From positions 51,641 to 115,640 of IMG/VR virus record IMGVR_UViG_3300046542_000291: a stretch of 64,000 nt of DNA; one strand, given 5' to 3'. Below are positions 748 to 52,281 of the stretch, piece by piece (positions within the stretch are counted from its first letter, which is position 1; each line of letters opens with the position of its first letter). Made by a program: the position numbers and the translations under genes. Source of the stretch: a virus. The notes under the pieces are model-generated. The model did no database searches. It saw nothing but the letters and a program-made list of their open reading frames with translations, and was not told the DNA's origin.

Positions 748-1002
748 ATGGTACAGGCATGTTGCGACAGCGTAGGTAAGTACATCAGTGAAGAAGGTGT
801 CCTGGATACCGAGAAGGTACGGGAACGGTTTGGGCTGGACGCGGTAATCGAAGTACGTGAGGATAAAGAATCTGAACTGGCCAAATGGATATTCACCAGG
901 GAAGCACGCTACCCCTCAGAGACATTTGTGATTGTCGGGGAAGTGGAATCGAAACTCTGTGTTTGCCCATGCCACCGAGTTGGTTTGATGGTGATGCATT
1001 AA
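748..1002 (+). CDS. hypothetical protein (84 aa)
   Basis: ORF-track ORF; tight spacing with neighbours. Confidence 0.45.
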   Translation: MVQACCDSVGKYISEEGVLDTEKVRERFGLDAVIEVREDKESELAKWIFTREARYPSETFVIVGEVESKLCVCPCHRVGLMVMH

Positions 1003-1070
1003 TAGGGAGCCTTAGGGCTCCTTTTATGCCCTATCGTTATGTTATTAAATTTACCGTTTACGAGGCAACT

Positions 1071-1793
1071 ATGATCGAGCAAATGCTGAATCCAGGTGTA
1101 TTGCTCCCCGAGGATACCGGCGACGTGATTTTTCTTTACGACCCCGTTACGAATACGGATCTCATCGGCGGCCCTGCGGTGAGTACGTTATCAGGGGGCG
1201 CAATCGCCGACTCAACTATCCTGATCAATAACCAGCCCACACTTAAGTTCCCAACTACAAACGCAAAGCATGTCATCACGTGGCCAACGGATCTAAACTT
1301 GGCTATCGGCAACTGGACATTAGAATGGTCTTTTATCAATGACAGCACACCGGCGGCGTACGGCAACGATCTTGTAATGTATTCCAGGTCAGGTGGTTCG
1401 GGTGTAGGTGTTTATATGCGCTTCGGCAACACGGGTTTTGGTAATCGTTATTTCATGTCCGATCCGAGGGGTGCGGTTGACCAAACTTTAACACAACCTC
1501 TACCGATTGCTAACTCATCACTGACCGGGGTCACCACTAACATAGCCTTGGTGAGTATTCAAGGTGTTATCCGAATCTACGTCAACGGCGTAGCTCAAAT
1601 GATGGCCCTAGGTGTAAGCACTAATACTTACGACAGACCAAGCATGATAGCTCAGGGAATGGATAAGATTTATTCCATTGGTCTGGGGTGGGCTGTTTCT
1701 GCTGTCCCCGCGGTACCAGGTCACCGCGGACGAATTAGGTTGAGTAACTTCGCCAGATACAGACGGAGCTATACGCCAGGACCGTTGGTGTAG
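1071..1793 (+). CDS. hypothetical beta-rich protein (240 aa), possibly jelly-roll/lectin-like
   Basis: ORF-track 885..1793 trimmed to the internal ATG at 1071 (MIEQML...), which has a GAGG RBS. The Gly/Thr/Asn-rich composition is typical of concanavalin-like folds; the fold call is a weak inference. Confidence 0.5.
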   Translation: MIEQMLNPGVLLPEDTGDVIFLYDPVTNTDLIGGPAVSTLSGGAIADSTILINNQPTLKFPTTNAKHVITWPTDLNLAIGNWTLEWSFINDSTPAAYGNDLVMYSRSGGSGVGVYMRFGNTGFGNRYFMSDPRGAVDQTLTQPLPIANSSLTGVTTNIALVSIQGVIRIYVNGVAQMMALGVSTNTYDRPSMIAQGMDKIYSIGLGWAVSAVPAVPGHRGRIRLSNFARYRRSYTPGPLV

Positions 1794-2063
1794 AATAAAA
1801 ATACTGGTCAGGTAATACTATACAGGAGACTGCACTCAAACCTGTCTCTGTTGGAAGGTGCCTAAACTCAACCTAGGCAACGGGCTGCACAGCCAATAGA
1901 GTAGAAGCCCTACGACCACGTCAAGCTGTCTATAGTGAAGCCGTGATCAGGGAAGCCCACCGCCGTACCCTTAGTATATCGAATCCGGGATAGACCCTGG
2001 TGAAGACCCAATAATCACCCGAAGGGCAAAGAAGGTGGACGGTACTACAGCGTATCTGTAGTA

Positions 2064-2137
2064 GCTCTGATCGTCTAACGGTAAGACAGTTGCCGCCCAG
2101 GCAACGTACATGGGTTCGACTCCCGAGATGAGCACCA
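2064..2137 (+). tRNA. tRNA-like element (74 nt), possible pseudo-tRNA: anticodon-loop triplet CCC with G at position 33, acceptor stem only 4/7 paired
   Basis: D-stem GTCT/AGAC, anticodon stem GTTGC/GCAAC with 7-nt loop CGCCCAG, T-arm ATGGG-TTCGACT-CCCGA and 3' ACCA are all in canonical register. The 5' GCTCTGA does not pair with the 3' GATGAGC beyond 4 bp. Confidence 0.35.
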
Positions 2138-2344
2138 TTTATAGATTCAATTGCCCCCGGAGGCATTTGCGTCGAATTTGAAAGATATAGTGGGTATCAC
2201 TGGCCTGACCGTGGTTGGTCCTAATGCTGGTTTCCCTCTTAATGAGAGGTAGGTATCTCTTTCAAATACAGTCGCTCTTCTTACCCAAGATCGGCAACCT
2301 ACGAGAATTAAGTGCACTGCTTATAAAGAGTGCCAGAGTTTGTG

Positions 2345-2430
2345 AGCGGGGTCGTCTAGCGGCCTAGGACACCGGTGGCCACCATAGCACCAAGCCGGAA
2401 ACACAGGTTCGATTCCTGTCCCCAATCCCA
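2345..2430 (+). tRNA. tRNA-like element (86 nt): tRNA-Glu-like D-arm and canonical T-arm, but no foldable anticodon arm and 2 acceptor mismatches
   Basis: T-arm ACAGG-TTCGATT-CCTGT followed by CCCCAAT-C-CCA; D-arm GTCT-AGCGGCCTA-GGAC resembles tRNA-Glu. A 31-nt middle segment containing the palindrome GGTGGCCACC cannot form a standard anticodon arm. Confidence 0.25.
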
Positions 2431-2437
2431 AAGTTTA

Positions 2438-2513
2438 GGATCAGTAGCTCAATTGGCAGAGCAACCGATTCCAAATCGGTAGGTTCCAAGTTCGACTCCT
2501 GGCTGGTCCGCCA
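2438..2513 (+). tRNA. trnW: tRNA-Trp (anticodon CCA), 76 nt with encoded CCA
   Basis: Hand-folded: acceptor GGATCAG/CTGGTCC (one G-U), D-arm GCTC-AATTGGCA-GAGC, anticodon arm ACCGA-TTCCAAA-TCGGT, variable AGGTT, T-arm CCAAG-TTCGACT-CCTGG, discriminator G, CCA. Confidence 0.85.
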
Positions 2514-2670
2514 GTTTTAAGAATCTGCTGCAGCAGATAGTGTGAGACATTCGGTCTGCGATAGTGCCAGCGCCTCGTAAGCGTGAGAAGACCCTAGGCC
2601 TCAGGATGAGGGAAAAGACCCGTAGCCGACGGAGAGCATCACACTAACACCATCCCCATTGGAGTATCCC

Positions 2671-2856
2671 ATGACGTCAGTAGTTACCATCAAAGCACAC
2701 CCGGTTGAAGGCAAGCAGGTCCAAGTGACCGTGAGTGACCCAACCATGAACCAGGAAGTCCTGGAACAGTTCTATCTGCAGAACGGTGAAAGCGCAGAAC
2801 GCGTTGTCTACGAAGACCGTGTGGTATCCGTTCGTGAAGTTTCCAAACCTGCGTAA
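2671..2856 (+). CDS. hypothetical protein (61 aa)
   Basis: ORF-track 2659..2856; first ATG is the 5th codon, preceded by GGAG. Confidence 0.45.
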   Translation: MTSVVTIKAHPVEGKQVQVTVSDPTMNQEVLEQFYLQNGESAERVVYEDRVVSVREVSKPA

Positions 2857-11787: not shown

Positions 11788-11805
11788 GCCTCCCCGAAGG
11801 GAGGC
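11788..11805 (-). terminator. GC-rich hairpin GCCTCCC-CGAA-GGGAGGC (UUCG loop in minus-sense RNA): putative terminator or RNA-stabilising stem
   Basis: Member of the repeated hairpin family; lies in an intergenic gap between 11960..12382 and 11265..11750. Confidence 0.5.
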
Positions 11806-11959
11806 AAGAAGCGGACCTAGCAACCTAGGACCAGGGGAAGGTCGATTACAATCCCCAAAGTGTACGGACTCGAACCGCACGTGTCACACGCTACATTGTT
11901 AAAGAGCATCGTAAAGGAGCAGAGGTAACCAGGAACCAATAGCTCTATATAATTACACA

Positions 11960-12382
11960 CTAAACGATTGGATCATGGCCAACGGGTTCAACCGTGGTCC
12001 ATGCCAGATCAGTCGGTGTAATGAGTGCCTCACCCAAACGGATGAGAGACTCTGTTCGTAGGTATTGATGATTCACGATATTGAACCGACCACCCACCGC
12101 ATGTTCATATTGCTTGAACAAACGATTGATAGCCAGATCCCGATCCGATTGGACCTCGTCGTCTTTCCGAGGAAGCGGCCGTTCATCTTCAGGCCACAGT
12201 ACAATAAAGCGGTAGTTGTCTACACCGTATTCCACGTGGTATGAATATTGATGCACGTTGAAATGTTCGCACTCCAGTTCGGTGTACGATTCGATAGTTG
12301 TCGTTGACTCACCAGTTAAAGCATTAAACGAGGCAAGCCTACGTCCCTTGGTTGTATCTACGATAACCAGGCTGGCCGACAT
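11960..12382 (-). CDS. hypothetical protein (140 aa)
   Basis: ORF-track ORF. Confidence 0.55.
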   Translation of the reverse strand: MSASLVIVDTTKGRRLASFNALTGESTTTIESYTELECEHFNVHQYSYHVEYGVDNYRFIVLWPEDERPLPRKDDEVQSDRDLAINRLFKQYEHAVGGRFNIVNHQYLRTESLIRLGEALITPTDLAWTTVEPVGHDPIV

Positions 12383-39228: not shown

Positions 39229-39651
39229 TTATGCAGCGGTCCAGCGTTTATACGTGCTGACTGGGTAAGCATCGCCAGCCCAGGTCATGTCGCTTTGCAT
39301 CTTTTCAACCAGCGCACAGATACGCGTGGCCACCATACGCTTGCTGATTGGACGGATACGATCTGGATTGTCCAGAACTTCCATCCCAGTAACAGTAGTG
39401 CGGGCCATTACGTGGAAACGGAAAGTCTCCAGCTCAGCACTTGCCGTGCTTTTAATGGTGATGTCGACGTGCTTCAAGTTATCGGTGTCTTTGAACACCG
39501 ACTGAACCACAAACGTCAATACCGTTTTGTTGATGGTGAAGGTTGTGTTGAACAGCTGATGTTTCTCCAACGCTGCGGAATAGCCTTCACGCAGCAGCGC
39601 CTCTAAAGCAGTCATTGCAATGGAGGTGAACATCTTGTTAGTAAACGACAT
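39229..39651 (-). CDS. hypothetical protein (140 aa), paralogue of 42182..42667
   Basis: Shared blocks TALEALLREGYSAALEKHQLFNT / DTDNLKHVDITIKSTAS with 42182..42667. Confidence 0.55.
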   Translation of the reverse strand: MSFTNKMFTSIAMTALEALLREGYSAALEKHQLFNTTFTINKTVLTFVVQSVFKDTDNLKHVDITIKSTASAELETFRFHVMARTTVTGMEVLDNPDRIRPISKRMVATRICALVEKMQSDMTWAGDAYPVSTYKRWTAA

Positions 39652-44600: not shown

Positions 44601-46001
44601 TTATTCTTCGTCGTCTTTCTTCTTTTCCAAATACTGAGTACTTACAGCTTTAAAGCTGAACACTCGGTCGGTGCACTTGAACACCAGTCCTTCGCGGTAA
44701 GTTTTCTTCGGTTGTTTCGGATCGACATTGAACGCACGCGGACCTTCAGCCATCAGGAGAATATCCTGAATAGTAGTGCCCACCGGAATAACAAACTTCT
44801 CATGCATGACCGGGACGTAAGGAAGGCCGATGGCAGCACATACACCACGAGCTTCTTCCGGCAACAACTCCTGGCTACCATTGCGGTATACGCTGTAGAC
44901 ATGGTATTCAACATCTTCCACGCCTTCGAAGCCAGACTGGATATCTGGACCGATCAGCTCGCCTTGAACAGTGATGTATTCACCTGTCTCTTCCTGGTAC
45001 GCCTTCAGCTTCTCAACCACCTTGTTCTTGGTGACGTAGCGGGTGAAGTTCCGGGAGGTGCTGTCGCCAATACCGGTGTTGGCTTTCCATTCAGGGACGT
45101 GAAGGTTGTTCATACGGAACGCCCATTTGCCATCTTCGTCCTTGAAGAACCACGACTTCGGTTTTAGGAAGTTGCGGTTGCGCGCCAGGAGGGTACCGAT
45201 CCAGTAACGGATCTGATCTGGTTTGGACCATTCCTCGTCACCGATAACCAACTCGTAGTTACGCGAGCAAACGCCAGTACGAACACCACCATCATCCAGG
45301 CAGAATACCGTCATGGAGCTACCGTCGAGTTTCCAGGTAACTTCGAATTCAGTGCCTTCCGCCTTTGCCGCTTCGAACGCGACTGTCTTGTTCTGGATAC
45401 GATCCTGATCAGACTTGAGCAGTTGCTTCGGCCATGGCAGGAGAGCATTACCCACGTTACCGAGGATCTTACGTACCAGACGCATGTACCAGCCAGAACC
45501 AGCTGCAGCCTGTTGCGCCGGCGACATGAGTGGCTTGGCTGCAAACTTCAGGATGCCCAGCTCCAACGTCATGTTGGTTTCAGCTGGAAGGTCTTTGTAT
45601 TTCTCTGGGAGTGGTACAACCAACCCCTGGGCCAGCTCCTTACGAAGACGGAGCGTGCGCAAACGGTGATAAGCCTTACCGTTGATCAGGCGGTTATCGG
45701 AACGGCGTGCCTCGAGGAACCCGAACAGTGGGTTATCGATTGGCAACAGCGAGTCGATCTCGCAGTACACCACACGGTCACCCTTCTTGTATTCGTCCAG
45801 CTTGACCACGCACTGCCAGCCGCCGATGATTGCCAGAGACAAGGCATCAGCATTTGGATGTTTGATCACGTCGTCAAGTACGACGATACGCGCCAGTTTG
45901 CGGTCGGTTTCAACCACCCCGTTCCCCTCACGGATTGGTTTGAGTTCAGCAGCTACATCGGGGGTAGCGGTTGCGACTTCGATCTTTTCTACGACAGACA
46001 T
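44601..46001 (-). CDS. ATP-dependent polynucleotide (RNA/DNA) ligase with an N-terminal OB domain resembling tRNA-binding (Myf/EMAP-like) domains, 466 aa
   Basis: Nucleotidyltransferase motif I WKLDGSS (KxDG) and motif IV EGLVFK. N-terminus (ARIVVLDDVIKHPNADALSLAIIGGWQCVV...KKGDRVVY) follows the HP.AD.L pattern of tRNA-binding OB domains. Confidence 0.75.
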   Translation of the reverse strand: MSVVEKIEVATATPDVAAELKPIREGNGVVETDRKLARIVVLDDVIKHPNADALSLAIIGGWQCVVKLDEYKKGDRVVYCEIDSLLPIDNPLFGFLEARRSDNRLINGKAYHRLRTLRLRKELAQGLVVPLPEKYKDLPAETNMTLELGILKFAAKPLMSPAQQAAAGSGWYMRLVRKILGNVGNALLPWPKQLLKSDQDRIQNKTVAFEAAKAEGTEFEVTWKLDGSSMTVFCLDDGGVRTGVCSRNYELVIGDEEWSKPDQIRYWIGTLLARNRNFLKPKSWFFKDEDGKWAFRMNNLHVPEWKANTGIGDSTSRNFTRYVTKNKVVEKLKAYQEETGEYITVQGELIGPDIQSGFEGVEDVEYHVYSVYRNGSQELLPEEARGVCAAIGLPYVPVMHEKFVIPVGTTIQDILLMAEGPRAFNVDPKQPKKTYREGLVFKCTDRVFSFKAVSTQYLEKKKDDEE

Positions 46002-46017
46002 GTTTCTTCCTTAGGTC

Positions 46018-46266
46018 TTATTGCAAAGGTTTGCAGGTTACAGTGATTTTTGCCATACGGCTCGACAGTGCGCCACCATCGACTCTCGATTCAACGTAGT
46101 CTTTGGTTTCTTTGACGAGGTAAGGCTTCATGCCGTATGTCTCTACGACTTGTTCAATTGCGGCTGGACACGTGTTGGCATCTGACAGTTCTGTGACTGT
46201 TGGTGCACCACCAGGTCCTGCGCCTGTATTGAACGCAAATGCGATAACAAGTAACGCTTTCATCAT
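46018..46266 (-). CDS. small secreted protein (82 aa)
   Basis: Signal peptide MMKALLVIAFAFNTGAG; two Cys. Confidence 0.5.
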   Translation of the reverse strand: MMKALLVIAFAFNTGAGPGGAPTVTELSDANTCPAAIEQVVETYGMKPYLVKETKDYVESRVDGGALSSRMAKITVTCKPLQ

Positions 46267-47546
46267 TACCCCTTAACGCAGAGAACCTGCTTCAGCGTGT
46301 GGACGATCTCGACGAGTTCAGCCTGAGCTGCCATCACGTCTTCGATGTTCTTGTACGCCTTCGGGGTCTCATCGAGCACACCTTCATCTTTACGGCATTC
46401 AACACCAGCCGTATCGCGGATGTGATCTTCGATGGTGAAGTTACGGTTAGCCGCTTTACGCGACATCACACGACCAGCACCATGCGAACAGGAGCAGAAC
46501 GACTCACGGTTGCCCTTACCACGAACGATGAACGACTTCGCACCCATCGACCCTGGGATAATACCCAGAGTACCTTCCTCGGCGTTTACGGCACCTTTAC
46601 GGGTAACCAGAACGTTCTCACCGAAGTGACGTTCCTGGGACACGTAGTTGTGGTGGCAATTGATTGCCGCCATGTCGGTGTCGATTGGCAGGTTCAGGGT
46701 TTTGTGGATCGCCCCCAGAACAGCCTTCATCATGAGCGTACGATTCAGTGCTGCGAAACGCTGTGCCCACGATACCGCCTGCAGGTAGTCGTCGTAGTAC
46801 TTGGTACCGTGTGGCAGGTAAGCCAGATCTTGGTCTGGTAGATGGATAAAGAAACGACCCATCTCTTCCTTTGCCTTGTTGATGAAGTACTGACCGATCG
46901 CATTCCCGATACCACGGGAACCAGAGTGCAGCATTACCCACACACGCTGTTCCTCGTCCAAGCACAGCTCAACGAAGTGGTTACCGGTACCGAGAGTACC
47001 CACATGGTTCCACGCCCGTTGTGCAGCCTTGGTGAGCTTCGGGTGTTTCTCAACGATTTGGTTCAGTTGCGTTCGCAACTTCTCCGCTTCAGCAGCGATC
47101 ATGATGTCCTTGTTATCGAACACAGTCACCTTACCGAAAGCACCACGGTCGTTTGGACCACCGTTGTCAGTACGGCCATGTGGTACTACCGCTTCGATAG
47201 CTGCCCGCAGATGGCCGAGGCTATCTGGCAGTTGGTCTGCACCGAACGTCAAGCGACGAGCGGCCATTCCGCACCCGATATCGACCCCCACCGCAGCGGG
47301 AATGATTGCACCTTTAGTAGCAATGACGCTACCGACAGTGGCACCCAACCCGAAGTGTACGTCCGGCATTACTGCAACGTGCGAATGGATGAACGGCAAC
47401 GACGCCAGGTTCTTCAACTGCTTGACTGCGGTCTCTTCGACTGGAACCCCCACGGTCCAGCCTTTAATCGGCTTCGAACCCGGTTCAGGTTCGCCACCAA
47501 TGATTTCGAAAGACTTATCTTGCTGCTGGGATTTCTTTTGTTTCAT
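46266..47546 (-). CDS. rtcB: RtcB-family RNA ligase (3'-phosphate/5'-OH ligase), 426 aa
   Basis: Blocks HFGLGATVGSVIA, DIGCGMAA, GTLGTGNHFVEL and HSGSRGIGN match conserved RtcB metal/GTP-binding motifs. Confidence 0.9.
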   Translation of the reverse strand: MKQKKSQQQDKSFEIIGGEPEPGSKPIKGWTVGVPVEETAVKQLKNLASLPFIHSHVAVMPDVHFGLGATVGSVIATKGAIIPAAVGVDIGCGMAARRLTFGADQLPDSLGHLRAAIEAVVPHGRTDNGGPNDRGAFGKVTVFDNKDIMIAAEAEKLRTQLNQIVEKHPKLTKAAQRAWNHVGTLGTGNHFVELCLDEEQRVWVMLHSGSRGIGNAIGQYFINKAKEEMGRFFIHLPDQDLAYLPHGTKYYDDYLQAVSWAQRFAALNRTLMMKAVLGAIHKTLNLPIDTDMAAINCHHNYVSQERHFGENVLVTRKGAVNAEEGTLGIIPGSMGAKSFIVRGKGNRESFCSCSHGAGRVMSRKAANRNFTIEDHIRDTAGVECRKDEGVLDETPKAYKNIEDVMAAQAELVEIVHTLKQVLCVKG

Positions 47547-47578
47547 AACTACCTCACGCGGATGGAAAGAGGGTGTAG

Positions 47579-47830
47579 CTAAACGTTGTTTATTTCTTTG
47601 ATGTAAGCAAAGGCCTCATCACGGTAGAAGACATGACCATTATGGTTACCCATGTCCGCTACCGCTTCATTGAGTTCCCTTTCGAACCACCAGTACCACT
47701 CCGGCCCCTTTGGTTGATAACGGGCACACCACTTAGCGTATTCCAGCAAGTTGCATGCACAGTTACCACGAGGGACCTGGGGCTCTTTAGGTGGAGTCTT
47801 ACCAAAGACTCGGCGTAACCATTCGACCAT
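47579..47830 (-). CDS. hypothetical Cys/Trp-rich protein (83 aa)
   Basis: ORF-track ORF. Confidence 0.45.
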   Translation of the reverse strand: MVEWLRRVFGKTPPKEPQVPRGNCACNLLEYAKWCARYQPKGPEWYWWFERELNEAVADMGNHNGHVFYRDEAFAYIKEINNV

Positions 47831-48210
47831 TACGCCACTGCCGCCTCACCAAACGTCAGCTCTTTGTAAAGCTGCGGTTTCGGAGGCATCAGGGTGATAC
47901 CACTGCAAGCACTGAAATGGGCCTGAATGGTTTCGTTGCGTTCCTGGCGGATGTAATCGTAGTTGAACAGGAACCCGTCCAACTCAACTTGATTAATCGC
48001 CTTGGTCGGATCGATGTAACTGGTTTCCCACGGACCAACCTCATGGTTAACCGAATGGAACAGCACACCGGCTGTTTTCTCAGCCAGGGATTGCATCCCG
48101 GTCATGACCTTGGAATAGAAGCGTTCGATCAACAAGCGTTGCTGCTTAGGAGAACTGGCACTCCAGATAGCCGAGCCATAATGTTCTACAACCTGTTCTG
48201 TACGTTCCAT
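47830..48210 (-). CDS. hypothetical protein (126 aa)
   Basis: ORF-track ORF. Confidence 0.5.
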   Translation of the reverse strand: MERTEQVVEHYGSAIWSASSPKQQRLLIERFYSKVMTGMQSLAEKTAGVLFHSVNHEVGPWETSYIDPTKAINQVELDGFLFNYDYIRQERNETIQAHFSACSGITLMPPKPQLYKELTFGEAAVA

Positions 48211-48225
48211 CGGATACCTCTTGAG

Positions 48226-49542
48226 TTATGCCGCTTTGAGAAGGGGCAATGTGGGGATGGATGCAATAAAGGCATCCGGGTCACGGCGATGTTCAAGGAA
48301 CAACGCTTGCAGGTCACAGCCCGCTATGTCCTCGAAACACCCACTGAATTCGTAGGTATGCTCCGGGAACACAACATGGATGTACTCGCGTACTTCTACA
48401 TCGGTCAAGTAACCGATTTCCATCAGGTGGTCCACTCGACCTTTACGAACTACCGCATCATCGATCTTGTCGATGTGGTTGGTAGTCATGAAGATCACCG
48501 TGCCGTTCAGCGAAACCACCCCGTCCAACACGTTGAGCACTTTGCTCAGGGTCAACCGGGAGAACTCTTCGTTCAGGGCTTCGAAGATGTTTGCTTCCGC
48601 AACTTTCTTCTTGGCTGGCGCCGCCGGTAAAGCACCGAGTGTTTCCACCGGTTCAACCTTTGGCTTCTTCGGTGTACGCGCCTTGAAGGCAGCCGAACTG
48701 TCGAAGTCTTCGATCAACACCACCGAGTTCGGGGGCAGGTGACTGAGGGCTTTCTCGAATGACGTATCGTCCATCGAGTTGATGTTGATGGTGCAGATGT
48801 TCTTGCCGAAGTGGGCAGCCAGTGCCTTGATGATACTGGTCTTGCCTGTACCTGGCTTACCGTGGATAACAAACGTCGACTTGTAAGCCATGCCACGTTC
48901 GTTGTACCACTCTTCACTTTCGTAGAACTGTTCCAGCTCGAAGATCAACTTATCCTTCGTAGCTTTGTTCATCGCTACCGTCTTGAGAGGACGCTTCTTG
49001 ATCTCACACAGGTACTGCCAGCCTTGATCACCGGTGTACGTATAGATGCGGGACTTCAGTGAGTTCTCTTTCGGCATGAACGAACTGACCAGGTCCTTCA
49101 ACACTTGTTGATTACGACCCCAGGTGAAAATCGTGACGCGTTCTTTCTCGTTGGTTGACCCTTGACTGTTCAATGCTTCTTTCTTGAACCAGTACAGGCG
49201 TCTCTTATAAACGAAGAAGTGTGTGCCGAAACCAGGGCCTATAATTGTCCGGCTGTTGGGTGACTCCAAGCTGATGTTCCGCGAGTAGCGTGACCAGGGT
49301 TGTTCACAGAACCACTGCATGAAGGACGTGAAGTGAACACGGTCTTCTGACCAAGCGGTGGCGTTGTTGAACGTCAGGCTGGTCATGCATTGTTTCAGTG
49401 TGGCCGAGTACACCGTTTTGGGCACCTGCCGCAGTATCGCGTACAGGAACCCCATTAGGCCAGCAAGGACGATGCCTGCTGCCCAGGGGGAAACCTTGTT
49501 GAATGTCAGGTATTGCTGCTGAAGCCAATCAATAAATTCCAT
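48226..49542 (-). CDS. membrane-anchored AAA+ ATPase, BCS1-like (438 aa)
   Basis: N-terminal TM helix plus a BCS1-N-like region. Walker A IHGKPGTGKTSII, Walker B VVLIEDFD, arginine-finger region. Confidence 0.75.
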   Translation of the reverse strand: MEFIDWLQQQYLTFNKVSPWAAGIVLAGLMGFLYAILRQVPKTVYSATLKQCMTSLTFNNATAWSEDRVHFTSFMQWFCEQPWSRYSRNISLESPNSRTIIGPGFGTHFFVYKRRLYWFKKEALNSQGSTNEKERVTIFTWGRNQQVLKDLVSSFMPKENSLKSRIYTYTGDQGWQYLCEIKKRPLKTVAMNKATKDKLIFELEQFYESEEWYNERGMAYKSTFVIHGKPGTGKTSIIKALAAHFGKNICTININSMDDTSFEKALSHLPPNSVVLIEDFDSSAAFKARTPKKPKVEPVETLGALPAAPAKKKVAEANIFEALNEEFSRLTLSKVLNVLDGVVSLNGTVIFMTTNHIDKIDDAVVRKGRVDHLMEIGYLTDVEVREYIHVVFPEHTYEFSGCFEDIAGCDLQALFLEHRRDPDAFIASIPTLPLLKAA

Positions 49543-49610
49543 GTCACATAGCTCTCTGTGTTAAACCGGCATAGATCGCCCCTTCCCTGGAGCGGTTCTA
49601 TGTTGGGGTG

Positions 49611-51392
49611 TTATGCAGCTTCGCGCAGGGTTGCACGAACTTCTTCGAAGGTCACTTCGTTCGGGAACGTGCCGTCTTTGTAGATCGGACGCAGTTCACC
49701 CGAGTGAGTGTCGAGGTCAGCGATTTCGAACTTCTGCTCTTGGAGCAGCTCAAAGTCACCGGCTTCGTTCTTCACAACCTTCAGGAAGCCCTTGGCCGAC
49801 TTCTTGTTGGTTTCGCCTTCGGTCTTCGGCGCCTTGAACAGCTCAACGAACACGTCGTCCACTTGAACGGCGGTAGCCTTGATGGCGTAGCCGAAGGTGT
49901 CACGAGTGTTGTGCTGATAGGTGTACGAACCGATACCCAGAACCCAGTTGCACGAAGCGAAGCCTTTCTTCATCAGGCGACGCATGATTTCCTGGGTACG
50001 TTCCACAGTGATCGAATCACCGTAGATCAGGCCAACACGTTCGTGCAGCACTTTGAAGCCCTTGTCGGTCATGGTGCCACCGAAAGTGTTCCACAGGCAT
50101 TCCACCGCACCGATCTGTTCGGCGTTCAGTTCTACCGGAGCCCACAGGTAGCCCAGAGCCGTGTAGTACTTCTCGGCGTCTTCAGCACTGATCGGATTTT
50201 CGTAGCGGGTTGCTTTGTACGTCATGCCGTTCAACAGAACGTACTCGACGTCTTTCGCTTTGCCGTTGTTGACCAGTTCGCTGAATTCCAGCGAGTTGTG
50301 AACTTCCACACCGCAGATGACTTCAACAGGATCACCGGAATCCGGACGGAACACCACTTTGGCCAGGCCGTTGGCGTCTGGTTGACGAGCCAGGATTTCT
50401 TCCTTCAGGGAAGGGGCAACAATGGTCAGGACACCCCAGAAGTCGAAGCTGTCGCAGACCAGGCTGATGATGCCAGTAGGACACTTGACGGTAATGGCAT
50501 CCAGGATGAACTGACGCTCGGCCAGCAGTTGCGCTTTGCCGTATGCATCGGGATCGAGGTCACCACCAGTCAGGCCTTTTTCCAGCAGCCACTTGGTCAT
50601 GTTGTACAGGATGTTCGAAGTAGCAACGGCGTGTTCGGTAGCACGCACCGATACAGCCAGGAACTCGACGTCGCTGTTGGCGAAGTACATGTCTTCGGCG
50701 TAGTCGATGGCCGGCAGGGTATCGGTACCCACGAAGCTGGTCAGGTGACCGGCGCCAGTACGAGCAGCATCTTCAGGACCGGACAGGCCACGGAAGGCGA
50801 AGTCATGCCCTTGCAACGCAACGAAGTCACGAGGCGAACCAGTCAGGTCAGCGAAGTGTTCCAGGATGCGACGGTATTCGTAAGCGATGGTGGCGTTGCA
50901 GACCATTTTCCAGATCAGCGACGACATCAGGGTTTCCAGGTAGTTCACTACCCAGAAGAATTCCGGTACGGTGTTGTAGATCACGTAGCCCGGAACGTTC
51001 ATGTTCAGGCGAGAGCCTTCCGGTACCGACAGGATGGTAACCGGTAAGTAACCCAGGTCATGCAGTGCTGCCATGGCTTCGATGTCAACCATACCTTCAC
51101 CGAGGTAGTTCTTCATGCGGCGAGCGTAGCGACGGATCACTTGCTCTTTCGGCTTGCTGAAGAACGAATCGTGCCACAGGCCGTGAACTTCACGCATCAC
51201 GCCTTGGATACCGAACCAGACGACTTTGCTATCCCAGAGGTAGGACTGGGACTTGCTGCCCTTGAACAGACGGTCTGCACGTGGAGTGCCGTTACCGTAG
51301 GCGAAGTTGGTGCCGTTCGGGTACAGAGGGCCGTGACCCATTTTGTAACCGTCTGCTGCAGTCGGGCCAAACAGTTTGAAAGAAGTGCTCAT
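49611..51392 (-). CDS. nadV: nicotinamide phosphoribosyltransferase-family enzyme (NadV/Nampt-like; could be a Namat-type variant), 593 aa
   Basis: Conserved Nampt blocks including VFRPDSGDP and the GS...DSFD region. ORF-track 49611..51443 trimmed to ATG with AAGGAAA RBS. Confidence 0.85.
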   Translation of the reverse strand: MSTSFKLFGPTAADGYKMGHGPLYPNGTNFAYGNGTPRADRLFKGSKSQSYLWDSKVVWFGIQGVMREVHGLWHDSFFSKPKEQVIRRYARRMKNYLGEGMVDIEAMAALHDLGYLPVTILSVPEGSRLNMNVPGYVIYNTVPEFFWVVNYLETLMSSLIWKMVCNATIAYEYRRILEHFADLTGSPRDFVALQGHDFAFRGLSGPEDAARTGAGHLTSFVGTDTLPAIDYAEDMYFANSDVEFLAVSVRATEHAVATSNILYNMTKWLLEKGLTGGDLDPDAYGKAQLLAERQFILDAITVKCPTGIISLVCDSFDFWGVLTIVAPSLKEEILARQPDANGLAKVVFRPDSGDPVEVICGVEVHNSLEFSELVNNGKAKDVEYVLLNGMTYKATRYENPISAEDAEKYYTALGYLWAPVELNAEQIGAVECLWNTFGGTMTDKGFKVLHERVGLIYGDSITVERTQEIMRRLMKKGFASCNWVLGIGSYTYQHNTRDTFGYAIKATAVQVDDVFVELFKAPKTEGETNKKSAKGFLKVVKNEAGDFELLQEQKFEIADLDTHSGELRPIYKDGTFPNEVTFEEVRATLREAA

Positions 51393-51405
51393 TACTTTGT
51401 TTTCC

Positions 51406-52281
51406 TTACGCATTGATCCAGGTGAGTTTGTTATCGACAACACCGTCTGGGCGAGTACTGCCCTGTGCTGTCGGATGGAACGAGTTGGTGGTGTAGACGT
51501 GGTCGTACTTTTCAGTAACCAGGTCGAAACCGTACGAGAAGATCCCGTGCGTTACCAACAGTTCCAATCGTGCTGGATTATGCTTGCGGATTTCTTCAGC
51601 CAGTTGGATGAAGGTCCGTCCACCATCACAGATGTCGTCACAGACCAGCAGTCGTTTGCCAGTTACATCGGCATCGAACTTGGTCTTGGTGATTTCCATC
51701 GTTTCCAGGTCACGCTCTTTAGTAGCCGTGATGTAACCAGCGCAGCCCAGGTGAGCAGCCAACGCTTTCACTTTCTTGACAGCCCCTGCATCAGGAGCCA
51801 CCAGCCAGGTATCGTGCAGTTCGTTTGCCGTAGCATCCAACATGTGCACGATGTCAGCCTGGGTCTTGACGATCACGCGGTTGATCAACGCCGGCGTAGT
51901 GTCGCTGTGCGGGTCCAAAATGGTCACACTGACGAACTCACAGAGGTTGATCAACTTCGCTGCTACCGCAATACCCAACGACTCCCCGGGGTTACACACG
52001 CGGTCCTGCCGGGCGTAAGGGACATAAGGGATATATGCGCTTACCGGTACGTCGGGACGAATGCGACGGATCGCATCGGTAACGTGCAGTAAAGCGAGGA
52101 AGTCAGTTGGGGTACGGAGGTTGGCCATGACTTGAATGTCCATGCAACCGCGGATTTTGTTGTGGAACTCTTTCGGAATAAGTGGGTTAACTTCCCCACC
52201 TTTGAACGTGCTCACGTCAACGATAGTCTGCGCCACTCCCCAGTGGTCGCCATTGCCGCGTCGGATACTTAAACGAATCAT
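51406..52281 (-). CDS. prs: ribose-phosphate pyrophosphokinase-family enzyme (PRPP synthetase, or ADPR-pyrophosphokinase-type homologue), 291 aa
   Basis: YARQDR motif and PRPP-binding loop LLVCDDICDGGRTF; immediately upstream of the nadV-like gene. Confidence 0.85.
   Translation of the reverse strand: MIRLSIRRGNGDHWGVAQTIVDVSTFKGGEVNPLIPKEFHNKIRGCMDIQVMANLRTPTDFLALLHVTDAIRRIRPDVPVSAYIPYVPYARQDRVCNPGESLGIAVAAKLINLCEFVSVTILDPHSDTTPALINRVIVKTQADIVHMLDATANELHDTWLVAPDAGAVKKVKALAAHLGCAGYITATKERDLETMEITKTKFDADVTGKRLLVCDDICDGGRTFIQLAEEIRKHNPARLELLVTHGIFSYGFDLVTEKYDHVYTTNSFHPTAQGSTRPDGVVDNKLTWINA

Follow-up and report, generated by a model that had tools for sequence, protein, structure and literature searches.

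Two transfer RNA (tRNA)-like elements occur on the plus strand of a 64,000-nucleotide stretch of viral DNA (IMG/VR record IMGVR_UViG_3300046542_000291, positions 51,641 to 115,640; the window, numbered here from its first letter), both upstream of a canonical tRNA-Trp(CCA). The second of them, element 2 (2345..2430), is tentatively understood as a selectively maintained, non-decoding tRNA mimic that derives from a tRNA-Glu gene and would exert its function through the tRNA core together with the loop at the anticodon position. A functional tRNA-derived RNA had been among the options raised in a first-pass annotation of the window, and it is supported for element 2 because the sequence is conserved in a related virus beyond neutral sites and has changed in ways that preserve pairing. 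The first, element 1 (2064..2137), is a lineage-specific copy derived from tRNA-Gln with a degraded acceptor/T junction and no sign of selection, either a young mimic or a decaying copy. Neither element is able to decode, since a usable anticodon is absent from both. Their likeness to tRNA exceeds chance: as annotated, and as read directly from the letters, both stand in exact tRNA register with D arms, T arms and CCA, and the sequence GGTTCGANTCC occurs three times in the 64 kb against 0.16 expected, a count reached in 0 of 100 shuffles.

The evidence on element 2 comes from comparison with L019 (IMG/VR contig IMGVR_UViG_3300046692_000091, 314.8 kb), in which the upstream gene, the promoter motif, the element 2 homolog, the tRNA-Trp and a lyase-like gene are arranged as in the window. 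Element 2 is identical between the two in 77 of 87 positions (88.5%), and its loop, 17 or 18 nt long, in 16 of 18 columns, compared with 80.5% for the tRNA-Trp. The lyase-like gene, with 86% identity in its protein, shows 57% at codon position 3 and 47% at four-fold degenerate sites; protein identity of the upstream gene is 44% (window against P0011, whose contig is as long as that of L019), and the 110 nt upstream of element 2 cannot be aligned. With neutral identity set as high as 57%, a match of 77/87 still has a binomial probability no greater than 2e-10. The substitutions within helices in L019 are A49-U65 to G.U, G7-C66 to G.U, C3.A70 to A-U and G2.A71 to G.U, hence all four keep or restore pairing, and the acceptor stem of L019 is paired in 7 of 7 positions. 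Element 2 thus combines slow substitution with pairing-preserving changes, as a selected non-coding RNA does. Decay, which the annotation had considered for both elements, is refuted for element 2 because 88.5% identity compares with 47% at four-fold sites and with 80.5% in the tRNA-Trp. The 3' end of the L019 copy is TTC and not CCA. By this comparison element 2 is under purifying selection, loop included, with the CCA end outside what is selected. The CCA end had earlier been taken as a sign of retained processing, an argument that loses its force given the TTC of L019 and the loop-closed acceptor stems of related elements described below, which together make a function of the CCA or aminoacylation type unlikely.

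Element 2 reads AGCGGGG TC GTCT AGCGGCCTA GGAC A CCGGT GGCCACCATAGCACCAA GCCGG AAAC ACAGG TTCGATT CCTGT CCCCAAT C CCA, where GGCCACCATAGCACCAA is the loop. Its parts are the acceptor stem (2345-2351/2420-2426), the D arm (2354-2370), a stem (2372-2376/2394-2398) with its loop (2377-2393), the variable loop AAAC (2399-2402), the T arm (2403-2419), C73 (2427) and CCA (2428-2430). The acceptor stem has five of seven pairs, with the mismatches G2.A71 and C3.A70, and the element contains the palindrome GGTGGCCACC; the D arm of tRNA-Glu type, the palindrome and the two mismatches were all correctly described before. The 31-nt centre, earlier called unpairable, does pair: CCGGU (2372..2376) and GCCGG (2394..2398) form a 5-bp equivalent of the anticodon stem that closes a 17-nt loop in place of the anticodon stem-loop. 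The tRNA-Glu pattern consists of a D stem GUCU/GGAC with U11-A24 and U13.G22, the D loop AGCGGCCUA and the 4-nt variable loop AAAC, features which we take to correspond to the augmented D helix of Escherichia coli tRNA-Glu. A reading G33-CCC-A37 can be obtained from both elements, from the loop CGCCCAG of element 1 and from the loop of element 2 when its central 10 nt are left out (GGCC|CAA); the agreement is probably a coincidence. A long antisense target for the loop of element 2 is absent from the window. One 12-mer of that loop, GTGGCCACCATA, recurs at 39326..39337 on the plus strand inside the minus-strand open reading frame (ORF) 39229..39651, so that the loop is complementary to the mRNA of this ORF, and the recurrence is near chance expectation.

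Detectors of tRNA genes treat the two elements as borderline. Default ARAGORN and Rfam at its gathering threshold call the tRNA-Trp (2438..2513, plus strand; 63.6 bits on the Rfam tRNA model) and nothing else at the locus. When the ARAGORN threshold is relaxed to 80%, the permissive check proposed in the first-pass annotation, element 2 is recovered with exactly its ends, 2345..2430, while for element 1 the only call has its 5' end displaced and carries a nonsense anticodon. The proposed check against covariance models was likewise divided: on RF00005, the tRNA model of Rfam, element 1 reaches 25.8 bits (E=0.007 in a 1-kb search), under the gathering score of 29 bits, and element 2 has no tRNA match in Rfam and only one to tRNA-Sec, at 15.7 bits and E=5.4. 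Both elements possess a D arm and a T arm with GGTTCGAnTCC at tRNA-like spacing. Neither reaches 29 bits or a default ARAGORN call, neither has an anticodon loop of 7 nt in which position 33 is U and position 37 a purine, and the stack of a 7-bp acceptor stem on a 5-bp T stem is intact in neither. Transfer-messenger RNA (tmRNA) is called by neither ARAGORN nor Rfam, and its G3.U70 is absent (C3.A70 in element 2, U3-A70 in element 1). Homologs of element 2 are rare. BLAST against 50,697 phage records gave no match; exact and degenerate element 2 patterns retrieved L019 alone from IMG/VR and nothing from metagenomes; and an IMG/VR search anchored on the protein of the upstream gene was fruitless. 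A looser, stem-anchored pattern returned L019 plus 38 matches that we regard as chance. The loci of the relatives discussed below were reached through protein homolog look-ups.

A second line of evidence comes from relatives that have a different version of the same design. L244-L247, whose lyase-like protein is 84-87% identical to that of the window, as well as L028 and the cultured phage Psa21 (L007), are without element 2 upstream of tRNA-Trp. In L028 and L244-L247, a circularly permuted Glu-like element begins a few nucleotides after the 3' end of tRNA-Trp, just before the start codon of the lyase-like gene; in Psa21 it follows a tRNA-Ser, itself placed after tRNA-Trp, and again lies just before the lyase-like gene. 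The elements are located at L007 5089..5161 (NC_062581 291888..291960, minus strand, unannotated), L028 3234..3310, L244 3907..3979, L245 and L246 3903..3979, and L247 3908..3980. Each runs from the 3' strand of the anticodon stem through AAAC, the T arm, a loop-closed acceptor stem and the Glu D arm to the 5' strand of the anticodon stem, and is thus a tRNA-Glu-like body that has its ends at the anticodon position and its acceptor stem closed by a loop. In L244 the first half comprises GAGGG, AAAC, the T arm AUCGG UUCGACC CCGGU and the acceptor stem A CUGUCC UUCG GGGCAG U, and the second half UC, the D arm GUCU AGUGGCCUA GGAC, A and the anticodon-stem 5' strand CCCUC. Across the six permuted sequences 97.6% of cells are paired, compared with 36-52% in slid controls, and four pairs show compensatory changes, such as GAGGG/CCCUC against GAGAG/CUCUC and C36-G45 against G36-C45. 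Many further matches to a permuted pattern in unrelated phages were rejected as tandem tRNA-Glu genes, where pairing joins the 3' acceptor strand of the first copy to the 5' strand of the second. The claim of permutation is therefore restricted to Psa21, L028 and L244-L247, where the abutting tRNA-Trp (tRNA-Ser in Psa21) leaves no room for a first copy. Stem sequences differ between element 2 and the permuted elements, which may be independent derivatives of tRNA-Glu genes; common to both are the T loop, the helices, a D arm of Glu type and AAAC as variable loop, which jointly constitute the tRNA core. Since the permuted elements have neither a free acceptor end nor an anticodon, both are dispensable in the clade. 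The presence of two topologies, normal and permuted, in one clade singles out the tRNA core as the selected part.

How element 2 might work is suggested by what it retains. Having kept a D arm of Glu type, a variable loop of 4 nt and the T arm along with both coaxial helices, it would adopt the L-shape of a tRNA, and because these core helices are retained, it is also predicted to be excised from a precursor: host RNase P at the 5' end and 3' trimming enzymes would release the tRNA-shaped units along with tRNA-Trp. As it has no anticodon loop and no required CCA end, element 2 would neither decode nor need charging. It would instead most likely act via its core or elbow and the conserved 17-nt loop, by binding, and then titrating or redirecting, a tRNA-shape-recognising protein or RNA. 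A wider version of this proposal, which we regard as possible at best, would unite element 2, the permuted elements and the oversized-loop genes introduced next into an undescribed and widespread class of phage mimics derived from tRNA-Glu; these would act in trans on a host factor that recognises tRNA, for example as anti-defence RNA decoys for an immune nuclease that targets tRNA, or as Y-RNA analogues that do without Ro, and would be co-expressed with a structured RNA at 2540..2644.

The oversized-loop genes were collected with a pattern consisting of a Glu-type D arm, 30-60 nt and a T loop. Its matches include many contigs of phages and metagenomes where the usual anticodon loop of 7 nt has given way to 14-20 nt or to far longer segments (examples are L011, L013, L015/L022/L202, L024, L010/L023, L199/L235, L216, L222, L225 and L221). 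Most of these genes have intact acceptor stems, many lie inside tRNA clusters of unrelated phages and some stand beside normal tRNA-Glu genes. L015/L022/L202, L199/L235, L216 and L222 form a subfamily with G3.U70 and A73. This combination is the alanine identity set of tRNA-Ala and tmRNA; the subfamily might be charged with alanine despite having no anticodon. In cellular genomes the same pattern finds, as expected, archaeal intron-containing tRNA-Glu/Gln genes. It also picks up a tRNA-Glu-like gene in about 25 Streptomyces genomes (L157-L196; for example L181 6330..6389 and L193 2162..2221), in which an extended stem with a UUCG-type (GGGTTCGCCC-type) cap replaces the anticodon loop and the acceptor stem is mostly paired. 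Closer to the window, tRNA-like genes with 8-14-nt loops at the anticodon position are present within the same phage group. That of 201phi2-1 (L001 2739..2830, which is NC_010821 302766-302857, minus strand; unannotated) has a 14-nt loop, a 7/7 acceptor stem and CCA, and lies directly upstream of the conserved 105-nt RNA described below; that of Viktualia (L002 2783..2865) scores 26 bits on the tRNA model and pairs 6/7 in the acceptor stem; and that of D6 (L006 2051..2131), annotated as 'tRNA-OTHER', has a 14-nt loop and irregular acceptor pairing. Literature searches turned up no earlier account of tRNA-Glu-like RNAs, whether oversized-loop or permuted, for these phages. The published transcriptome of 201phi2-1 includes 11 small RNAs, one of them beside a tRNA.

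Several observations weigh against a maintained mimic and its wider class. Element 2 is known from two copies, so that its covariation amounts to one sequence pair, and the window copy carries two acceptor mismatches that L019 does not have. Element 1 is without homolog, and the spacers on its two sides (1829..2063 and 2138..2344) show no excess folding energy (z = +0.20 and -0.51). The loops of the oversized-loop elements have no common motif, so their function may not be common either, and obvious scrambled tRNA debris in relatives implies rapid turnover of tRNA genes in the clade. In the window, which is part of a ~300-kb genome, the 10 largest ORFs and 86 others included no Ro60/TROVE gene, and these ~96 contained no CCA-adding enzyme or synthetase either; the Rfam model of YrlA, a tRNA-like module of Y RNAs, misses element 2 as well as the permuted elements. 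Lastly, the transcription and expression of element 2, its processing, its folding and its binding of a partner are things that we infer from sequence alone.

The main rival explanation, which fits the positions of the elements and which we nevertheless consider unlikely, places their role in cis: RNase P and 3' enzymes would cut at these modules, thereby separating the neighbouring RNAs, namely spacer RNAs, tRNA-Trp and the 105-nt RNA, and defining or protecting the 5' end of the lyase-like mRNA, or would serve that mRNA as a 5'-UTR structure, while the excised RNA itself would be functionless. Consistent with such punctuation, all elements stand in one terminator-less block ahead of ORFs, the permuted element of L244-L247 ends ~20 nt before the lyase-like start codon, CCA is encoded by both window elements, and RNase P cleaves YrlA of Mycobacterium smegmatis (PMC4201824). 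The conservation of the 17-nt loop is left unexplained, however, as RNase P does not read that part; closed acceptor stems, such as the permuted relatives have, make poor substrates for RNase P/Z in the Y RNAs of Salmonella and Deinococcus (PMC4201824); and in L019 there is no RNA to be freed between element 2 and tRNA-Trp. Less probable still is that both elements are relics of tRNA-Gln and tRNA-Glu genes drifting neutrally. Element 1 gives this explanation most of its substance, with a sub-threshold score, three acceptor mismatches, one T-stem mismatch, G33 and no homolog in relatives or collections, to which the scrambled tRNA fragments of relatives and the acceptor mismatches peculiar to the window copy of element 2 may be added. 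The sole counterpoint for element 1 is the intactness of its D arm, anticodon arm, T loop and CCA, whereas element 2, with its pairing kept and its conservation better than that of the functional tRNA-Trp and of neutral sites, does not behave as a relic.

The remaining alternatives ascribe the conserved loop to more specific purposes. Two ACCA motifs in the loop of element 2 (in CCACCA and GCACCA) and CCCA in that of element 1 could imitate the CCA anticodon loop of tRNA-Trp or the tRNA 3' end, and so titrate a host nuclease or transferase. Phage tRNAs were reportedly proposed by van den Berg et al. in 2023 to counter anticodon nucleases, which changes in the anticodon loop are said to evade. 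Both ACCA motifs are kept in L019 despite the lost 3' CCA, the element always adjoins tRNA-Trp, and the window encodes RtcB and an RNA ligase; the motifs are short, though, no such loop exists in the permuted relatives, the other oversized loops have no CCA motif in common, and the host is not known to possess a defence system directed at tRNA-Trp or CCA ends, leaving so specific a decoy improbable. Very improbable is a role at the level of DNA, with the tRNA shape as incidental and the overlapping palindromes CACCGGTG and GGTGGCCACC as a site of protein binding, recombination or attachment. A perfect 10-bp palindrome that overlaps an 8-bp one is indeed kept in L019, and HNH endonuclease genes are found within the tRNA clusters of relatives; against this, conservation extends over all 86 nt, the substitutions keep RNA pairing that includes G.U, which is meaningless in DNA, and the element resides in a tRNA cluster that is presumably transcribed. 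The least credible of all is an intron-containing tRNA that is spliced to a decoding form and sealed by RtcB, an enzyme the phage does encode. ARAGORN in intron mode at the 80% threshold, which reports nonsense genes too, returns tRNA-Gly(CCC) with a 10-nt intron, and the pattern that captures the oversized-loop genes also captures archaeal intron-containing tRNA-Glu/Gln. Yet the spliced loop would be GGCCCAA, with G33 rather than U33, on the body of a tRNA-Glu; neither UUC nor CUC is present in the loop, whose length differs in L019; no bulge-helix-bulge can be drawn by eye in the centre; and no splicing endonuclease family was found among the ORFs of the window.

In its likely activity element 2, understood as a maintained mimic, is probably closest to the tRNA-like module YrlA of bacterial and phage Y RNAs, an analogy drawn from structure, in which the order is T arm, closed acceptor stem and D arm (RF02553; Chen et al. 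2014, PMC4201824). Like element 2, YrlA is a non-decoding copy of the D arm, T arm and acceptor helix of a tRNA in which the anticodon is dispensable, and as here it is found in phages and close to RNA-repair genes of the RtcB type. The permuted elements of the relatives match its order exactly but have just a 5-bp closing helix. Element 2 differs from YrlA in being unpermuted, with free ends, a 17-nt loop and a Glu-type D arm, and in having no long Ro60-binding helix. On the YrlA model (threshold 69 bits) the window's only match, at 19.7 bits, combines the T arm of element 2 with the D arm of tRNA-Trp, and such matches in the window and in relatives were set aside as artefacts of a T arm standing beside the D arm of the following tRNA. 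The permuted elements of L244-L247 and L028 gave no match to the model at E<=5, and a GNCGAAN0-1G motif was not seen by eye in 1800..2700. Genes called as tRNA pseudogenes or as 'tRNA-OTHER/undetermined', with sub-threshold scores, mismatched stems and aberrant loops beside real tRNAs, are a second comparison, which element 1 fits fully; element 2, in contrast, changes at a rate far below that of neutral sites and also below that of the functional tRNA next to it. Archaeal tRNA-Glu/Gln with short bulge-helix-bulge introns have the same D arm and T loop and extra nucleotides in the anticodon region, but they keep a proper anticodon and a splicing motif, both absent from element 2, which belongs to a virus of bacteria. 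The cluster tRNAs of van den Berg et al. (2023) are said to be shaped by tRNA-targeting defences and still to decode, which elements 1 and 2 cannot. Phage T4, of a different phage family, has in its tRNA cluster the stable RNAs species 1 and species 2, which are co-transcribed and co-processed with tRNAs and are partly tRNA-like; the location of element 2 is presumably comparable to that of these never-explained stable RNAs of phage tRNA clusters.

The tRNA clusters of phages are usually accounted for by codon supply or by the replacement of host tRNAs that immune nucleases have destroyed. A non-decoding tRNA shape that is conserved above its real tRNA neighbour points to a third use, in which mimicry of the shape is itself the function, and it provides a link to bacterial Y RNAs, whose tRNA-like module has no known partner. 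Psa21 is in culture and such phages are genetically tractable, so the search for that partner could be taken up experimentally. Genes of this kind are at present lost or mislabelled by annotation pipelines.

Element 1 consists of GCTCTGA TC GTCT AACGGTA AGAC A GTTGC CGCCCAG GCAAC GTAC ATGGG TTCGACT CCCGA GATGAGC A CCA, a spacing that is exactly that of a tRNA (7/2/4/7/4/1/5/7/5/4/5/7/5/7/1/3) and places ACCA at the 3' end. Its description as having a good anticodon arm with the triplet CCC and G33 and four of seven acceptor pairs holds true. The D arm, anticodon arm and T loop are in good order. In the loop CGCCCAG (2094..2100), C32 and G38 could pair. The acceptor stem has four Watson-Crick pairs (G1-C72 to C4-G69), followed by U.U and a tandem G.A/A.G that we conjecture to be structurally tolerated, and the T stem carries an A49.A65 mismatch at its top. 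The D arm TCGTCTAAYGGTARGAC is of the phage tRNA-Gln type, as 104 of the 122 IMG/VR genes with that arm at tRNA spacing have the anticodon TTG or CTG; the 4-nt variable loop is likewise typical of tRNA-Gln. In the relaxed ARAGORN call mentioned above, the distal acceptor strand is 2050..2056, which would offer six of seven acceptor pairs at the cost of a 14-nt insertion. The call is judged spurious because of that insertion and because the strand overlaps an 8-bp hairpin (TACTACAG cgtat CTGTAGTA; 2043..2063, plus strand) that can be read from the sequence and abuts the 5' end of element 1. Homologs of element 1 were found neither in the loci of the relatives, nor by BLAST in 50,697 phage genomes, nor in IMG/VR with an anticodon-arm pattern, and for this reason decay, recent origin and function are equally compatible with it; of the decay proposed for both elements, the part concerning element 1 therefore stands alongside the other two.

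By its sequence relationships, the phage behind the window is placed in the jumbo, nucleus-forming Pseudomonas group. The gene directly upstream of the locus (885..1793) has its sole phage-database relatives in the Pseudomonas phages D6, Psa21, RVTF4 and Noxifer (36-48% amino-acid identity), and a 78-nt stretch downstream matches 201phi2-1 and Viktualia. Both elements are housed in an ORF-poor gap (1794..2658, ~860 bp), in which neither the antisense ORFs 1930..2166 and 2147..2317 nor the plus-strand ORF 2215..2367 belongs to a PHROG family. The non-coding block is headed by a promoter-like motif, GTAATACTATA (1812..1822, plus strand). Allowing at most one mismatch, GTAATANTATA has 7 matches in the window against 1.26 expected; the matches checked (1812, 4387, 11946 and 38520) all lie in gaps between ORFs and are oriented toward the downstream gene, and the same promoter-like motif precedes tRNA or tRNA-like clusters in L019, L028, L244-L247 and Viktualia. 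Because the motif heads the gap, and no sigma-70 promoter-like site and no plus-strand terminator-like site was found inside 1794..2658, the segment 1812..3552 is read as a single transcription unit that would start at the 1812 motif and run, in order, through a spacer, element 1, a second spacer, element 2, tRNA-Trp, a hairpin, the 105-nt RNA and ORFs. The tRNA-Trp is syntenic in D6, Psa21, RVTF4, L019, L028 and L244-L247 and is tightly linked to a Glu-like element throughout the clade. Compared with L019, the window has exchanged a leader of ~110 nt for ~500 nt made up of spacer, element 1 and spacer. In relatives a conserved leader RNA of ~115 nt (...GAGCGTAAGAG...GGGACCAGGGATATCGGTTAGCCTGGTTTAACAAAAACCCGACCAAG) sits between the promoter motif and tRNA-Trp or element 2 (L019 1716..1830, minus strand; L028 3040..3150; L244-L247 3715..3825), and parts resembling its 3' portion also occur at L002 3190..3235 and L004 9990..10030.

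Downstream of tRNA-Trp, a perfect palindromic hairpin, ATCTGCTGCAGCAGAT (2523..2538, plus strand), leads to a conserved structured RNA of ~105 nt (2540..2644, plus strand). Equivalent hairpins with changed stem bases are present in 201phi2-1, Viktualia, L004, L005, L031 and L035. The ~105-nt RNA is a three-way junction with the helices P1 (2540-2545/2639-2644), P2 (2551-2554/2626-2629), P3 (2570-2573/2581-2584) and P4 (2599-2603/2607-2611). Unannotated DNA of 201phi2-1 (NC_010821 302516-302595) and of Viktualia matches it at 92-95% identity, while the rest of the 12 kb compared gave no megablast match, and it recurs in the five contigs L004, L005, L031, L035 and L037. Over eight sequences 94.2% of cells are paired, with compensatory changes in 11 of 22 pairs, and 0 of 500 shuffles were as high. 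The joining strands ACGAUAG, GAGAAGACCC, GGGAAAAGACCCGUAG and CGGAGAG are invariant, and the motif GA(G/A)AAGACCC appears twice. Rfam contained no match at E<=10. The pattern of conservation resembles that typical of a ligand-binding or catalytic RNA, suggesting a candidate riboswitch or ribozyme.

Elsewhere in the window, the RNA-repair genes to which the tRNA-like elements had been related are RtcB (46266..47546, minus strand) and RNA ligase (44601..46001, minus strand); they lie 42 kb away, and the linkage is weak. In the relatives L028, L244 and L247, RtcB is merely 4-5 kb from the tRNA cluster. The window genes are part of a minus-strand cluster (44601..51443) that encodes the RNA ligase (OB-fold and RNA_ligase domains), RtcB, a BCS1-like AAA ATPase and a protein of the NAPRTase family and that, together with a PRPP synthetase-like ORF located elsewhere, constitutes a set of RNA-repair and NAD-salvage genes. 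An intergenic region at 11790..11960 (minus strand) has the promoter-like motif at 11946..11956 and, after it, a solitary hairpin resembling a T arm (GTGCGGTTCGAGTCCGTAC; T-loop match 11866..11876) and two more hairpins. A search of this region against Rfam gave no match; it may be another tRNA-derived or Y-RNA-like module. In relatives, ~800-950 nt without called genes separate the lyase-like gene from a tRNA-Leu (L019 1..850, minus strand; L028 4072..4847). Absent from the syntenic place in the window, a segment resembling 23S ribosomal RNA (rRNA; positions ~330-384) is found in that stretch at L244 5201..5255 (37.7 bits, E=4.8e-8), L245 5067..5159 and L008 6177..6232, and the gene-free stretch of the relatives may represent a large structured RNA that includes an rRNA-like piece.

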